This document shows positions 37,749-44,575 of a stretch of DNA of 64,000 nucleotides, piece by piece (within the stretch, counting starts at the first letter, position 1; each line of letters begins with the position of its first letter). The notes under the pieces were generated by a model that was given only the letters and a program-made list of their open reading frames with translations, was not told where the DNA came from and made no database searches. The stretch covers positions 52,578-116,577 of the forward strand of contig CAWHXP010000008.1 in assembly GCA_963833425.1 (NCBI GenBank), written 5' to 3'. The position numbers and the translations under genes were made by a program. Origin of the DNA: an uncultured Methanosarcinaceae archaeon (lineage in GTDB: Archaea > Halobacteriota > Methanosarcinia > Methanosarcinales > Methanosarcinaceae).

Positions 37749-40067
37749 TTATTTCTTAATTGCATTAATAACAGCATTCGCTCCATCAATCAGTGTCAAC
37801 CCGTCTGTCGAAGAAAGCTTCCCAGTTTTGACGTCAGCATTTACTTCGTTAATGAAAGCATTGAGCTGATTAATTGCAGCATTTGTATTCCCATCATTTA
37901 TTTTTTTAGTCACATCATTCAGTTTGACTATTAATGAGTTAGCTTGCCCATTATTTAGTTGACCTGAAGTGACCAAACTCTGGATAAAAGTAGTCATTTG
38001 CTGGATTTTCTGCACCGGAGTCAGGACGTTGATTTGAACACTAGCTGATGTTGTACTGTAGTCCATAGTATCGTTGGGTGTAAATACTGTCTGCAATGTT
38101 TGTGTACCTGCACTTAGTAAAGTTCCTGCTACTGGAGTATAAACGAAACTTCCCGATACCGAAGAAATTGCATCTAGCTGAGTGCTACTTAATGCTGTTC
38201 CATAAACTATGTCAGCAGGATTACCCCAGGTAATTTTAGGAATCGCCTTCTTTACATTTATCAAAACACTTGCTGATGCCGTAGTATAGTTTGCAGTATC
38301 AGTTGGAGTAAACTTAGTACTCAATTTCTGACCCGAAACTGCACTTAATACAGTTCCTGATAACGGGTTATAAGAAAAGCTTCCAGGCACTGAAGCACTT
38401 GCATCTAGCTGAGTGGTGCCTTAGTGCTGTTCCATATGTTATGTTAGCTGGTTTATTCCAGGTAATTATAGGAGCAGCCGGTGTTACATTGATTTGAATA
38501 CACCTTGTTGCAGTAGTATAGTTTACAGTATCAGTTGGTGTTAAAGTAGCATTCAAGGTTTGGGTACCTACACCTAATACAGTTCCTGCTACTGGATTAT
38601 AGGAAAAGCTTCCTGGTACAGATCCAGTTGCATCTAACTGAGTGTTGCCTAGTGCTGTTCCATATGCTATGTTAGCAGGGTTACTCCAGGTAATTGTGGG
38701 AATCGCCTGGTTTACAGTGATCGAATTAGTAATTATCCTTCCACTAGTATAGTTTGTAGAATCACTTGGTGTGAAAGAAGCAATTAATGTCTGTTTACCA
38801 GCACTTAATACAGTTCCTGATTGCGGAGTGTAGACAAAAGTTCCAGGGACTGAAGCATTTGCATCTAACTGAACGTTGCTCAATGGTGTACCATAGACTA
38901 TGTCAGCAGGATTGCTCCAGGTAATTGTAGGAGTAATTTTATAAGTCAATGGTATAGGACCTATAAACTGCCCAAAGGCAGTAGGATTGCTGCCTACAGG
39001 CACTGTGGCTGTAACACTGTCTGTGGCTATGTCAATTACAGAAACAGTATTGTCATTAGAGTTTGCTACATATACTTTTGTTCCTTCTGGTGTGGCTGCA
39101 ATTCCCTGCGGATTGAGTCCTACAGGTACGGTGGTTATAACATTGTTTGTGGCTGTGTAGATTACAGAAACATTATTGCTGCCTTCGTTTGTCACGTATA
39201 CTTTTGTTCCATTTGGTGTGACTGCAACTCCATAAGGATTGTATCCTACAGGAATAGCGGCTGTAACATTGTCTGTGACTGTGTCAATTACAGAAATAGC
39301 ATTGTCATTAGAGTTTGCTACATATACTTTTGTTCCATCTGGACTGACTGCAACTCCATAAGGATAATTGAATCCATTAGCGTTTACTGTGGCTGTAACA
39401 GTGTCTGTGGCTGTGTCAATTATAGAAATAGTATTGCTACCTTCGTTTGTCACGTATACCTTTGTTCCATCTGGGGTTACTGCAACTCCATAAGGTTCGT
39501 TTCCTATAGACACTTTAGCTGTAACATTCTCTGTAGCTGTGTCAATTACAGAAATATTATTGCTGCCTTCGTTTGTCACGTATGCTTTCGTTCCATCTGG
39601 TGTGACTGCAACTCCATAAGGCTGTCTTTCTACAGGCACGCTTGTTGTAATATTTTCTGTGGCCGTGTCTATTACAGAGACAGTGCCTGGGTAAGCTGAG
39701 TTCGCAACGTATACCTTTGTTCTATCTGGTTTGACGGCCACTCCATAAGGATAATTGAATCCATTAGCGTTTACTGTGGCTGTAACATTCTCTGTGGTTG
39801 TGTCAATTACAGAAACATTATTGCTACCTTCATTTGTCACGTATACCTTTGTTCCATCTGGGCTGACTGCAACTCCATAAGGATAATTGAATCCATTAGC
39901 GTTTACTGTGGCTTAACATTGTCTGTTGCTGTGTCAATTACAGAAACAGTATTGCTACCGGAATTCGCAATATATGCAAATGGCGTAGCAGCTGCGATAT
40001 TCACAAATATTAAAATCATAACAGTTGAGGCTAAAAAAATCGAAAAAGATTTGTGTTCATTGATCAT
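37749..40067 (-). pseudogene. YVTN beta-propeller surface protein with ITWxNPA.I.YGT.L repeats and C-terminal helical domain; two 1-nt frameshifts
   Basis: Signal peptide from ATG 40067 (MINEHKSFSIFLASTVMILIFVNIAAATPFAYIAN). 1-nt deletion at ~39913 and 1-nt insertion at ~38420. ORFs 38368-39840 and 37749-38390 are continuous in repeat phase. Confidence 0.88.
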
Positions 40068-40276
40068 GATTTCTCACATTTTCCATATATTATTTACCGA
40101 AAAAATTAGGATAGGTTCTCTTCTGTATAGAATATTTATCACTCTGTTTTTTAGTATCGTAACGTCGCTTGATTTTGATATCAAGTAAATTAGCATTGTT
40201 ATAACCAAGAAATTTGTCATTTTCCGACTCATCCATTAATTTTTGATTTAAATATCAGCATTGGTGAAAGCACAGC

Positions 40277-40309
<33 letters not shown>

Positions 40310-40968
40310 CACCAAATATTAGTAACAACGTTATACAGTTATCTTTGATAATATTTTTGATAATACTTATAAATGAATCATTTGAAATATTATATAAGTT
40401 GCAGTGTTTATATGACTTGATTATCCTTAGAGCATAACCAGTCTCCAAATATTTTCTTTCCAGAAAAGAAACGGTGAAATGCTTTATCGTAGGTCACTGA
40501 ATCCATTAACTTCCGCTATAATCTGTAATTCGTCAAGCCCATGCTATTTACCGGATAAACATTTACTAAATTTAGATTTAGTGACATGTAGAATCATATT
40601 TGGCTAGCCAAATATTATATAATTTTCTTTAGGAGATCAGTTTGTTTTATAAATTAGGGCTGTCTCGAATGCGTACCAATCTGCAGATAGATTCGCTATG
40701 TACTCATCTCAAAATGGCTCCAAGATAGAAAGGATTGCTCAGGCAGCAACAAAAAAATGAATAACAAGTTAAAAGAGTTTTTTAAACGGAAGAAAAAAAT
40801 CAATTAGAAATGCAAAAACAATTATTGAATTAGCACTGAAGATCACCAATTATTTAAGAGGTTACTGAGAATAAAAAATTATGTGAAGATAAAACAAGAT
40901 ATTCACTCGGTAGATATATGTCAATACACACAGATGTACATCTGTTAGCCTATTATCAACTATTCATT

Positions 40969-41028
40969 AAAAGTTAAATTAATTTTTAAGCTACTATCAA
41001 AAGTTAAATTAATTTTTAAGCTACCATC
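40969..41028. repeat. 30-bp tandem duplication
   Basis: AAAAGTTAAATTAATTTTTAAGCTAC(T/C)ATC x2. Confidence 0.9.
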
Positions 41029-41255
41029 ATATTAAAAAATAAATAACGTTTTTGTGTATATCGACGAAAGGTAGGAGATTATTACAAGGGAGAAACTCAA
41101 AAAAATTTGGTGGAACTTGTAGCATCTGTTAATAGACGTATAATAATTAATGGGATAATCGGATTATGTGGATAGAGGATGGAGAAAGTACTTGATAAAG
41201 CAATTTCATCACGTACTATCATGATAAATTAGTTACAACTTTTAGCTACTATTCT

Positions 41256-42437
41256 TTAGGAAACAAGTGCTTTGAGCTCAGAAACTGCCTTTACTAGGAT
41301 ATCAACTTCTTCCATTGTATTATATAGTGCGAAAGAAGCTCTTACAGTACCATCTACTTTCAGAAATCGAGTAATTGGAATTGCGCAGTGGTACCCGCTT
41401 CTAACGCAAATTCGTTTGGTCTGGTCAAGAATTAGAGCAACATCATGGGCATTAAGCCCTCTCACATTAAAAGGTACTATTCCCATACTGCTTTCGGGCC
41501 CGTAAACTTCCACATGCTCGAGTTCGGAGAGTTTTTTTGCAGTCTCTCTTGAAAGATTCATTTCATGTTTTTTGATTTCAGAAGTCCCTATTTTCGCTAC
41601 ATACTCTACTGCTCTTCCTAACCCTATGACTCCTGGAATATTGGGAGTGCCAGCTTCAAAGCATGCTGGAGATGGCTCTAGAGTATAGGTAGACTCGGAT
41701 ACATCCGAAACAGTACCCCCTCCAACTGAAGCACTTTCGAGTACTTCGGGTTCTTTAACATAAAGTACGCCAGTGCCCTGTGGTCCAAGCAAGCCCTTAT
41801 GCCCAGAAGTTGCAAAAAAGTCACATCCTGTATCCTTAAGGTTGACTGGCATATGTCCTGCAGATTGGGCACCATCAATCAAAACTTTTATGCTGTTTCT
41901 GTGGGCAATTTTCGTCATGCCTTTTACGTCCTGTACGGAACCGAAGACATTTGAAACCTGGGTTATGGCAAGAAGTTTTGTTTTCTCTGTGAAAGCGCTC
42001 TCTAGCAGATGACTGCCGATTTTACCCTTGCTGTCAGGGTTTATAACAGTGATATTTACACCTTTTTTCTGCAAACGCATCCATGGAAGAATATTCGAAT
42101 GGTGTTCTAGCAGAGTTGTGACAATGTGATCTCCTACCTCCCATGGATAACTATTAGCAATGAGATTGATCCCTTCTGTAGTATTTTTCGTAAAGATAGT
42201 ATTTGAAGGCTCTGCATTTAGAAAGCTAGCAACTATTACCCTAGCGTCTTCGTAGTGGTTTGTGGTTTCCCTGGTCAGGCGATGGGCTCCTCTCCCATAA
42301 TTACCAGCATATCTATAGAAATAATCAACCATGGCTTCAACTACAGGTATCGGAGTCTGGGTAGTTGCAGCGCTGTCAAGATAAACGACTTCTTTTAAAA
42401 CAGGAAAATCTTTACGGACCACATATACATCGTACAT
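41256..42437 (-). CDS. Cysteine desulfurase, SufS/Csd (group II) type
   Basis: YLDSAATTQ, EHHSN, DGAQS, SGHKGLLGPQG, EAGTPN, active-site RSGYHCA, RASF.LYN. Confidence 0.93.
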   Translation of the reverse strand: MYDVYVVRKDFPVLKEVVYLDSAATTQTPIPVVEAMVDYFYRYAGNYGRGAHRLTRETTNHYEDARVIVASFLNAEPSNTIFTKNTTEGINLIANSYPWEVGDHIVTTLLEHHSNILPWMRLQKKGVNITVINPDSKGKIGSHLLESAFTEKTKLLAITQVSNVFGSVQDVKGMTKIAHRNSIKVLIDGAQSAGHMPVNLKDTGCDFFATSGHKGLLGPQGTGVLYVKEPEVLESASVGGGTVSDVSESTYTLEPSPACFEAGTPNIPGVIGLGRAVEYVAKIGTSEIKKHEMNLSRETAKKLSELEHVEVYGPESSMGIVPFNVRGLNAHDVALILDQTKRICVRSGYHCAIPITRFLKVDGTVRASFALYNTMEEVDILVKAVSELKALVS

Positions 42438-42479
42438 GCTTAGCTTTTAGGAACGAGAAATAAAAAAAGTTTGTGCAGG

Positions 42480-42638
42480 TTACTTACCCTGCATACCGCC
42501 TATCATAAAGCGGTAAATATCCAATTCATCTGAGTTCAGGCTGTCTGTACAACCCTTTATGACGGTGTGGTAACCGTCTTCGTGGTATTTATTTCCGTAT
42601 TCTCTTTTTTTTACGCATTCTTTATTTAATTCACTCAT
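42480..42638 (-). CDS. Unannotated small protein (52 aa) MSELNKECVKKREYGNKYHEDGYHTVIKGCTDSLNSDELDIYRFMIGGMQGK
   Basis: Strong RBS AGGAGG-AAAAT-ATG. Ends 42 nt before the desulfurase ATG on the same strand. Below the ORF-track length cutoff. Confidence 0.7.
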   Translation of the reverse strand: MSELNKECVKKREYGNKYHEDGYHTVIKGCTDSLNSDELDIYRFMIGGMQGK

Positions 42639-42660
42639 ATTTTTCCTCCTGTCTCTTCAA

Positions 42661-42808
42661 TGCTTGCGCTGATATGCAGGTTAGAATCATTCCCTCAGGA
42701 TATGAACTCTTCAGTTCGGTTTGAAATTTCAGTGCATCTGCATAGGATTCCTATAAGCAGATTAGAATTTTCCGTCCTGGGGCTACTAATCCCTTAACTG
42801 CGCAACAG
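42661..42808 (-). promoter_or_regulatory. Structured 5' leader RNA (riboswitch-like candidate)
   Basis: Nested complementary segments UUGCGC/GCGCAA, GCAGUUAAGGGAUUA/UGAUUCUAACCUGC and CCCCAGGA/UCCUGAGGG. Inner hairpins AUCUGC..AUAGG-AAU-CCUAU-GCAGAU and GAACU-GAAG-AGUUC. A TATA-like element lies at ~42850-42858. Confidence 0.55.
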
Positions 42809-43707
42809 TAATTGTTCTTACCCACAACAAGTATTAATTGTCATTTGTATTATATATTAGTTCCGGGAGATATGGTGTTGCCGAATTAAGTCATTTCCTG
42901 AACAATTTCTACAGATCAGGAGAATATCAAAAAATTAAGGTAATGAAATCGTTGAGTATGACAAATAAAAATGGATCCATTTCTGATAATAGACACAACC
43001 CGTTTGCCGTCTACATCCTACGAATTAGATAGTTTGGTTGAGATATAATAGCTGACCTAATAAAGCATAATTATAGTCCGCAAGAAGTTATCAAGGTTTT
43101 ATTTCGTGCTGCAACATCTTCTAACAATTCTCCTGAACCTGCAATCAACTATCAATTCATCAACAAATAACTTTTTTCGAATTTCAGAGTATTCTTCAAA
43201 GATTTTTTTGTTGTGATACTTATATGATCATAAAAAGAATTCTTTTCAGTTATTCAAAAAGTCGTCTAAGAATATTTGGTCCATCTAGCTCGCACAGGAT
43301 CTATGAAACCCTGCGTTGTTTCGGGATATAAGTGCGAGATAGATGTGTGAGTTAGCTAGCACAACTCTCAGGTTAAAAGTGTAAAAATAGCTGTTTCAGG
43401 TTCCCGTCCAAGCTATACGGATTCAAAAAAGTTATTGAAATGAATTCCAGAAATGTAATTAGAAAGGTGGTTCTAAAATCTGACAAAACAAGGCTAAAGA
43501 ACTAGTTTTATCAGATTATATCAAACACCCAACACCACATACCATGATTTACTCTTTTTTAGCTTACTTTATACAAGAATATACCAAGCAAACAGACGAT
43601 ACCATGAACTATTTCAACTTCAGGCATTCTTGTGTTTTCTTTCTACCTAGGCTTCTGTGCAACATTTGCTCCTGTTGTAACATTGGCGTTGAAGTTGCAA
43701 CAGACGG

Positions 43708-44575
43708 TTAGGCAGTTACATTAATATAGTTGGGATTTACTTTTTTATTGCTTCCCTAAGCATTCGTTACTTTTAAACTACAGTATAGTTCACTGCTTTC
43801 TAGTAGGTGTGTACAGGGTTTACTGGAATTTTACTGGTCTTGGAACTCTCGTCTCCAAATACCCATTCCCATGATGTAGGTGATCAGTGCTTTTATCGAT
43901 GAATTTCACCGTTGACCATTTCCTTCTGTTGGGGATGCCGAAAAATCAGCAACCTGTAGTACCGGATCACCAATAAAATTCCCGTTGGATGGGGGTCCTT
44001 GTCCTACAGGTACTGTGGATGTAACAGTGTTTATGGTTGTGTTAATAACAGAAAAATTATTGATGTCCACGTTTGCCGCATATACCTTTGTTCCATCTGG
44101 TGTGACCGAAACTCCAATTGGCGATCCTCCTACAGGTACTGTGGCTACAACAGTGTTGTTTGTTGTGTTAATTACAGAGATGGAACTATCTGGGGGGCCA
44201 CCAGGGTGACGGCCATTCATTCACCACCTATACTTTTGTTCCATCCGGTGTGACTGCAACTCCGTTAGATTGCGAGTTTTGTCCTACATTCACAGTAGTT
44301 GTAACAGCGTTTGTGTTTGTGTTAGTTACAGAGACATTGTCGCTGCCAGAGTTCGCAACATATACCTTTGATCCATCCGGGCTGCAACTCCCAAGGCATG
44401 TTACCTACGTGAATTTTGGCGTGACAGTATTTGTGGCTGTGTCAATTAAAGAGACAGTATTGCCTACCGAGTCCGTGATATATGCAAATTGCGCCGCGCC
44501 TGCGACACTTACCAGCATAAAAACCAAAGCTGTTGAAAATAAGGCTATAGAACACAAATTTCGTTTAGTTAACAA
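43708..44575 (-). pseudogene. YVTN beta-propeller + PKD domain surface protein pseudogene
   Basis: Signal peptide LCSIALFSTALVFMLVSVAGAAQFAYIT. YVTN repeats GVSVTPDGTKVYAAN. PKD fragments VADFSASPTEG, SWEWVFGD, NPVHTY, NYINVT. Many frameshifts. Confidence 0.85.

Follow-up and report, generated by a model that had tools for sequence, protein, structure and literature searches.

What is the structured region that precedes a small open reading frame (sORF) and a cysteine desulfurase-like gene in an uncultured archaeon of the Methanosarcinaceae? We studied it in a stretch of 64,000 nucleotides (nt) from assembly GCA_963833425.1 (contig CAWHXP010000008.1, positions 52,578 to 116,577), called the window below. 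A sequence-only reading of this DNA had proposed an undescribed cis-regulatory RNA or small RNA linked to sulfur mobilisation. We conclude that the region is very probably a transcribed, conserved and structured 5′ leader, and this much is more secure than any mechanistic step. As for the mechanism, we tentatively favour, at a little short of an even chance, a cis-acting leader that would control sORF translation at a conserved box next to the Shine-Dalgarno sequence, with expression of the sufS-like gene coupled downstream. Conserved yet variable in length, the leader has the look of a control element of archaea that is still undescribed, and it does not resemble a classic riboswitch.

To our knowledge, archaea have few described RNA elements that exert control in cis. 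Our literature search found none for sulfur-mobilising genes in methanogens, and nothing on this leader; supplements on Methanosarcina mazei or older transcription-start tables could list the transcript under another name.

The leader and its operon

The argument turns on the following features of the window:

42866-42861, minus strand: CCGGAA, resembling a B recognition element (BRE), read from the sequence
42858-42850, minus strand: TATA box AATATATAA, read from the sequence
42812..42830, minus strand: 5′-proximal hairpin P0 (UUGUU/AACAA, loop with GUGGGUAAGA), from the consensus fold
42800..42805, minus strand: 5′ strand of the closing helix P1, UUGCGC, from the minimum-free-energy (MFE) fold, the consensus fold and a 48-leader test
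42664..42669, minus strand: 3′ strand of P1, GCGCAA, ending 3 nt before the box
42651..42660, minus strand: box UUGAAGAGAC, 10 nt, predicted single-stranded and abutting the Shine-Dalgarno sequence
42645..42650, minus strand: Shine-Dalgarno sequence AGGAGG, complementary to the CCUCCU with which the 16S rRNA of the same genome ends (3′)
42480..42638, minus strand: sORF of 52 amino acids, start ATG at 42638, from the list of open reading frames (ORFs)
41256..42437, minus strand: SufS-like class-V aminotransferase or cysteine desulfurase, 393 amino acids, PF00266 at 422 bits

The locus is present in 35 of 36 genomes of the same genus, Methanosarcina (E <= 2.5e-35), the single exception being 81% complete. 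Five other families of the order, covered by 24 genomes, gave no locus match better than E = 0.0097. Matches always consist of two blocks: the promoter with about 45 nt of RNA, and the final 45 nt of the leader with the sORF. The sORF is 51-52 amino acids long in 30 of 30 loci, and the SufS-like gene starts 41-46 nt after it in 28 of these, the remaining two being cut by locus ends; in the window the spacer measures 42 nt. No Shine-Dalgarno sequence precedes the SufS-like gene in the spacers read, in the window and in orthologues. The leader is single-copy in the window's genome.

Beyond the genus, a single-protein query with the sORF found relatives in 157 of 177 Methanosarcinaceae genomes (13 of 16 genera). 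A profile search of the sORF family matched 92 of 93 Methanosarcinaceae genomes and 0 of 107 genomes from five other families of the order; named records include Methanolobus, Methanococcoides and Ca. Methanovorans. Judged by these searches, the operon of the 52-amino-acid protein and the SufS-like desulfurase is confined to Methanosarcinaceae among the genomes covered. The desulfurase belongs to PF00266 (Aminotran_5), exceeding its cut-off of 21.5 bits. It scores 420.6 bits against TIGR01979 (sufS), below the curated threshold of 475.1, and we call it SufS-like because it misses this second cut-off though it passes the first.

Upstream of the leader, the arrangement CCGGAA-N(2-5)-ATATATA is found in the listed Methanosarcina loci and in those of two sister genera, g17 and g18. 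Placed by the usual archaeal TATA-to-start spacing, transcription is predicted to start near 42828, about 25 nt past the TATA box. A metatranscriptome contig of 1144 nt (run X2) spans 41666-42807 unbroken and covers the leader, the sORF and 770 nt of sufS, so that all three can share one molecule. In a second run of the same study, a contig likewise stops at 42807, about 20 nt inside the predicted start, and the conserved promoter lies 20-50 nt upstream of these contig ends. No contig of the DNA run X1 matches the stretch, and no RNA contig covers 42808-42869, where the promoter is located; neither absence carries weight as evidence.

Two further observations concern the promoter region. The stretch between TATA box and start (42831-42849, minus strand, …UGACAAUUAAUAC…) is conserved genus-wide. 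It holds an inverted repeat, ACAA-N7-UUGU, and may be a transcription-factor operator. In Methanolobus-type loci (L045, L053, L112, L113), a conserved AAUAAAUAUUCUU…AUGUAUAUAUAAU resembling a second TATA box lies about 45 nt before the ATG. If it were used, the box would stand at the extreme 5′ end of the mRNA in these organisms.

Fold and constraint

By eye, the sequence-only reading had seen nested helices closing a junction, with at least two hairpins, between a TATA-like element and a strong ribosome-binding site. All of these parts were found on the minus strand, the nested helices between 42664 and 42805 being present in the MFE fold of 42655-42815. Inside P1, which encloses a domain of about 130 nt, the fold comprises:

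42793-42786 with 42689-42679, minus strand: second helix, GGGAUUA(G) with part of UGAUUCUAACC, from the MFE fold
42782-42775 with 42700-42692, minus strand: third helix, CCCCAGGA with UCCUGAGGG, from the MFE and consensus folds
42762-42736 and 42717-42704, minus strand: inner hairpins, from the MFE and consensus folds

The proposed second helix is only partly borne out: the single-sequence fold puts it in one register, the consensus fold built on the five closest leaders in another. P1 is the last helix before the initiation region, with AGGAGG 13 nt past it.

Folding energy had been set beforehand as a check, and the leader beats its shuffled controls: the segment 42655-42815 folds at -44.1 kcal/mol, compared with -32.9 +/- 3.6 for 200 dinucleotide shuffles (z = -3.10), none of which is as low. 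Flanking sequence weakens the signal (231 nt, z = -1.53, 15/200 shuffles as low). The 167-nt stretch that begins at the predicted start and stops short of the box gives z = -2.54, with 2/100 shuffles as low. Orthologous leaders give negative values in 17 of 18 cases, ranging from -3.28 to +0.27.

The leader is also constrained in sequence. Over 12 genomes (66 pairs), mean pairwise identity reaches 0.95 in the box, 0.90 in the 5′ part and 0.78 in the interior, as against 0.66 at four-fold degenerate sites of sufS in the same genomes.

Compensatory change was assessed in two sets of leaders. The first set, 21 leaders of about 350 nt, yields a consensus fold of 50 pairs in which 94.6% of cells pair. 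Changes on both sides were seen in eleven pairs, compared with 6.4 in shuffles (2/500 reach this value), and 27 cells did so, compared with 10.6 (0/500); slid controls gave 3-8 such pairs. These figures are inflated, because the inner fold came from the same sequences. The second set comprises 48 leaders from three genus-level groups (Methanosarcina, g17 and g18). Here P0, P1 and the GGG/CCC helix (P2) together pair in 87.1% of cells, with 16 cells changed on both sides compared with 9.3 in shuffles (1/500). P0 pairs in 90.8% of cells, with one pair changed on both sides.

The clearest case is P1, where 90.1% of cells pair and four of seven pairs changed on both sides: U-A to C-G in five leaders, G-C to A-U in four, and two single cases. 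Within the window's clade, one inner P1 pair is U-A in L011, A-U in L125 and A.A in the window; the genus mostly has U-A. The covariation and conservation among orthologues that the sequence-only reading had asked for are found, P1 included, with modest support from one family. Altogether, sequence constraint, compensatory change and folding energy modestly support selection on the leader's structure.

Two other pairings were considered and set aside. A long-range helix between 5′ UGUGGG and 3′ CCCRCA has no double changes and does no better than shuffles. Pairing of a 5′ CCUGU with ACAGG of the box appears in the consensus fold of seven leaders of about 320 nt; it is not general, because it is broken, by eye, in the L019 group.

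A multi-helix junction upstream of a ribosome-binding site, folding more strongly than its shuffles in a metabolic gene context, might suggest a metabolite riboswitch for a sulfur-related or cofactor ligand, towards which the sequence-only reading leaned. The covariance models do not bear this out. Neither the window nor any of nine orthologous loci matches an Rfam family at gathering score, and a permissive scan (E <= 10) of 42400-43100 returned five chance-level matches with E from 1.3 to 9.1. The flavin mononucleotide (FMN) riboswitch, RF00050, whose 3′ half the leader had been thought to echo, is absent from the window at gathering score and from 42400-43100 at E <= 10.

Homologues do not share the constant architecture and invariant junction nucleotides of a riboswitch either. 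The strands that join P1 to the GGG/CCC helix vary from class to class (AUGUA, AUAUC, GACAG, AAACA), and no junction nucleotide is invariant beyond the box. This sole invariant stretch of the leader is predicted to be single-stranded, and other genera retain it with short, unrelated leaders. We therefore consider a riboswitch highly unlikely, because the architecture varies and the junction strands are not conserved, even if the leader shares with riboswitches, the FMN class included, a multi-helix fold between promoter and ribosome-binding site in a metabolic operon. What stands of the earlier proposal is a conserved, structured leader matching nothing in Rfam or the literature searched; its riboswitch-like character does not. 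We infer, in turn, the regulatory role of the leader and its link to sulfur status.

The box and the tandem units

The box is the most conserved non-coding feature of the locus. In a survey of 108 loci, duplicates included, nearly all carry UUGAAGAGAC or, in Methanolobus, UGAGAGAC, and the box is kept across the loci of Methanosarcina, Methanolobus, Methanococcoides and Ca. Methanovorans. The survey marked four loci as box-less (L116, L124, L123 and L080). L116 and L124 actually retain UUGAAGAGAC, their Shine-Dalgarno sequence being replaced by GGUGAU; L123 is a paralogous sORF copy without sufS, and there the box is absent.

Predicted folds leave the box mostly open. Its mean unpaired probability over 49 leaders is 0.70, compared with 0.39 for the rest of the leader. 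For box and Shine-Dalgarno sequence together, the natural mean is 0.64, falling to 0.40 when the upstream part is shuffled, and for seven of ten leaders the natural accessibility is attained by no more than 1 of 30 shuffles.

Other roles for the box were tried. It is single-copy in the window's genome, and searches for a regulon element or antisense target (16-mer with <=3 mismatches, 11-mers with 0-1) returned the locus itself and scattered coding matches. No complement was found in the genome's 16S rRNA at <=2 mismatches, and pairing with it was dropped. A fourU-like sequestration of the box by an upstream U-run, considered for other genera, was rejected as well, with an accessibility of 0.55 compared with 0.52 in shuffles (16 leaders).

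Between its conserved ends, the leader is built from repeated units:

42667..42778, minus strand: inner domain of two to three tandem units of about 41 nt (42778-42750, 42744-42709, 42704-42667), from the unit profile

One of the window's units is strong (23.3 bits, E = 2.6e-4 genome-wide), one scores 12.2 bits and one is weak. The unit profile is significant nowhere else in the genome. With the leader itself single-copy, a genome-wide repeat was discarded, and the match to a known repeat that had been named beforehand as a sign against a regulatory leader was not seen. Each unit holds a GAAGGA-like element and a UUCUAACC-like element, and the motifs are spaced 39-42 nt apart. Inspection by eye found no consistent T-box, K-turn, tRNA-like or tetraloop-receptor motif in them. 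Unit cores are often self-complementary (GAAUUC, GAGCUC, AGAUCU, GAAAUUUC), and consensus folds pair unit with unit, so that the domain can vary in length between species with its ends fixed.

The number of units varies widely. Most Methanosarcina have 3-6, one species has 9 and another 14, and g17 and g18 have 0-1; over 51 distinct leaders, lengths run from 158 to 852 nt and unit counts from 0 to 14. The 852-nt leader, L015, shows the largest expansion: a block of three units, about 150 nt long, stands in it four times in tandem, almost unchanged. Three Methanosarcina leaders (L014, L059 and L060) carry a second copy of the leader's 3′ end (alignment columns 330-456). In these copies the box and Shine-Dalgarno sequence are intact and AUG has become CUG, leaving a pseudo-initiation region. 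Tandem duplication that takes in the initiation region thus appears to be a continuing process here.

Such growth may be neutral: only the promoter, the box with its Shine-Dalgarno sequence and perhaps P1 would matter, the interior being a by-product of slippage and duplication. The spread of lengths and unit counts fits this view, as do the near-identical copies in L015, the recent duplicates of the whole 3′ end, and the sister genera g17 and g18, which manage with one unit or none. The shared motif positions of the units point the same way, since their information content does not correlate with conservation between species (Spearman 0.12, p = 0.47). They are not extra-conserved, so the unit consensus reads as a trace of common descent and not as a repeated binding site; units as binding motifs under a constraint of their own were rejected for this reason. 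We nevertheless hold neutral expansion to be unlikely, if a serious contender. The interior is more conserved than the four-fold degenerate sites, double changes in the inner helices exceed those of shuffles, 17 of the 18 leaders outdo their shuffles in folding energy, and seven of ten have an upstream part that avoids the box as a pairing partner.

The units could also be diverged copies of the initiation region, serving as decoy or cooperative sites for whatever factor binds the box, in the manner of CsrA leaders and sponge RNAs. CsrA-controlled leaders carry several GGA sites, one of them overlapping the Shine-Dalgarno sequence. The purine-rich GAAGGA-like element in each unit is consistent with such a platform, and L014, L059 and L060 show that copies of the initiation region do arise within the leader by duplication. 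We find it improbable. The unit profile misses the true initiation region, its best matches, about 0.6 bits, falling elsewhere; the motif positions are free of extra constraint, and the leaders of g17 and g18 lack the units. A search of the window's genome, 80% complete, for CsrA (PF02599) found no match; its control matched only E. coli, B. subtilis and T. maritima. As the profile misses the true initiation region, we rejected the view that the units are recognisable copies of it, and keep the idea as a minor rival because of the three pseudo-initiation regions.

The likeness to bacterial protein-binding leaders (ribosomal-protein and CsrA) is wider than the units. It extends to a structured 5′ untranslated region with a single-stranded element at the ribosome-binding site, purine-rich repeats upstream of it, and control expected at translation initiation. 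The differences from such leaders are the archaeal host and the lack of a CsrA match. In addition, mutually pairing 41-nt units, whose shared motif is not specially constrained, take the place of short hairpin-loop motifs.

Finally, spacings of 39-42 nt are near four helical turns (about 41-42 bp), and palindromic cores (GAATTC, GAGCTC, AGATCT, GAAATTTC as DNA) could be phased operators for a DNA-binding protein downstream of the promoter. A DNA element of this kind seems to us extremely unlikely. The cores vary in sequence yet remain self-complementary, which fits RNA pairing better; helices between units far apart show compensatory changes; and the region is transcribed.

The sORF stop, the small protein and the flanks

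The end of the sORF carries a second candidate control element:

42462..42493, minus strand: terminator-like hairpin UGCAGG-N8-CCUGCA followed by CAAAC and U7 (hairpin 42493-42474, U7 42468-42462)

The hairpin is formed by the last sORF codons (…Q-G-K-stop) and the first six bases of the spacer, with the stop codon in its loop; four of its six pairs are G-C. It folds in all 45 distinct sORF ends listed, most weakly, with one mismatch, in two Methanococcoides ends. In L093 a G-C pair has become A-U by a double change that also turns the Gly codon into Ser. A tract of U6-7 is found in the Methanosarcina spacers listed. By its sequence, this conserved G+C-rich hairpin with its U-tract resembles an intrinsic terminator between sORF and sufS. 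Termination in archaea is described in one study as mainly dependent on a U-tract and aCPSF1, with U-tracts setting its efficacy (PMC8716108). The hairpin and U7 could couple sORF translation to read-through into sufS.

Bacterial leader-peptide operons with translation-coupled attenuators include trp, pyrBI and tna. As in those, a short reading frame here ends at a terminator-like hairpin with a U-tract, and the position of the ribosome could decide read-through. Unlike them, the sORF encodes a protein conserved across the family and not a sensor peptide rich in a single amino acid. Termination in the archaeal host would also follow mainly the U-tract and aCPSF1, as the same study describes (PMC8716108), and the coupling is one we propose from sequence. 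By analogy, the leader would work most like a bacterial protein-controlled leader combined with a translation-coupled attenuator, and it belongs to no described family.

The mechanism we tentatively favour would then run as follows. RNA would begin about 25 nt after the promoter and form a 5′ hairpin and then the P1-closed domain, both predicted. The folded domain would protect the 5′ end and keep the long leader from pairing with the initiation region, where a factor recognising the box would set the rate of sORF initiation. On reaching the sORF stop, in the hairpin loop, a ribosome would melt the hairpin-plus-U7 element. Melting would favour read-through and sufS translation, linking the desulfurase to the sORF.

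Several results weigh against this mechanism, besides the lack of special constraint on the unit motifs. The RNA evidence consists of assembled contigs from one study, of related strains mostly 90-99% alike, and such contigs reveal neither start, strand nor level; the continuity of the RNA is therefore a weak hint. P0 lies outside all RNA contigs and the start is a predicted one, so the presence of P0 in the transcript is deduced. Covariation is modest, and the sequences on which the inner structure was tested are those it came from. For the GGG/CCC helix the covariation does not convince: 78.8% of its cells pair, a Y-R pair fails in 28 of 48 leaders, and its support comes from invariant pairs. 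The five closest leaders, the window's included, show no double change in 53 predicted pairs, and are therefore too alike to test the fold. The inner fold varies among length classes. In the window's own leader, box accessibility is 0.49 compared with 0.48 in shuffles, 19 of 30 of which are as high. Every functional step is an inference.

The terminator-like element raises another reading, in which the leader and sORF are released as a discrete RNA some 370 nt long, with a further role in trans. Its basis is the conserved hairpin and U7 directly after the sORF, together with a weak hint from run X8, where the leader with the 5′ part of the sORF is covered by separate contigs from the sufS part. 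Small protein-coding RNAs (spRNAs) are also described in Methanosarcina mazei (10.1101/2025.10.28.685009). Like these RNAs and the small proteome of that species (PMC11456600; 10.1101/2025.10.28.685009), the present transcript would be short and separately terminable, and it encodes a protein of <=70 amino acids; in the abstracts of these papers no mention of the sORF was found. We judge a dual function very unlikely. No complementary target or partner of the box was found in the genome, one RNA contig bridges sORF and sufS, and contig depth is unable to rank the parts of the transcript. The free-standing small RNA that the sequence-only reading allowed for is not supported, as the window lacks any run of >=4 T from 42830 to 42639. 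A U5-U7 tract occurs near +45 in some other species and is not conserved.

A more ambitious circuit can be drawn in three tiers: the box as the operator of an RNA-binding regulator, the units, as diverged copies of the initiation region, as a decoy array that loads or titrates it, and the stop-codon hairpin as a translation-coupled antiterminator. The regulator would report sulfur or iron-sulfur status and could be the small protein, the desulfurase or both. We regard this circuit as a long shot; if true, it would be an archaeal post-transcriptional circuit with no described counterpart. The locus makes the question testable, with its family-wide, operator-like box, its compensated closing helix and a natural series of leaders with 0-14 units, to which the stop-codon hairpin and U-tract add. 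Cultured, genetically tractable Methanosarcina species share the same arrangement, and the proposed steps can be tested in them directly.

The operon also flags the 52-amino-acid protein as a likely partner or regulator of the SufS-like desulfurase. Public Methanosarcina records call it a hypothetical protein; it matches no Pfam or NCBIfam family at E <= 1 and has no usable match in the ESM Atlas. Two of its peptide fragments are absent from the 12 supplementary files of PMC11456600 that were searched. In the alignment G29, Y42, F44, G47, G48 and K52 are invariant. The C-terminus (...LY[RK]F..GG.Q.K) is kept, and the N-terminal half is basic and variable. A structural model contains a single helix (residues 36-47), at low confidence (predicted local distance difference test, pLDDT, 61.7). 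The GG near the C-terminus had brought to mind a ThiS/MoaD-like sulfur carrier, an idea dropped as this low-confidence model has no beta-grasp.

ISD11 (LYRM4) is the small LYR-motif partner of the eukaryotic cysteine desulfurase NFS1. The sORF product is likewise small and has a conserved Leu-Tyr-Arg/Lys-Phe stretch, and its gene adjoins that of a cysteine desulfurase. It differs in carrying this motif near the C-terminus, in its one-helix, low-confidence model and in matching no LYR family (Complex1_LYR) in Pfam at E <= 1. By this analogy, it may be a partner of the SufS-like enzyme, recalling ISD11 with NFS1. Many non-Methanosarcina genomes of the Methanosarcinaceae hold two or three paralogues of the small protein; the only one inspected, that of L123, has neither box nor adjacent sufS.

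Neighbouring genes differ between loci. In two loci, L049 (3-1112, minus strand), of Methanococcoides type, and L057 (3-1058, minus strand), from another genus, the gene upstream of sORF-sufS and divergent from it is a YcaO gene (PF02624, E = 6e-76 and 3e-74). The sole YcaO match in the window's genome sits on a different contig (C2), and in g18 the gene upstream of the operon encodes a DUF531 protein. In the window, long AT-rich stretches without large ORFs extend over 39900-41250 and 42870-43900, with an RNA contig present over 42870-43051. The flanking ORFs at 38368-39840 and 43906-44220 (both minus strand) encode repeated '…TKVYVANS…VSVIDT…' units, which by eye resemble YVTN-type beta-propellers.

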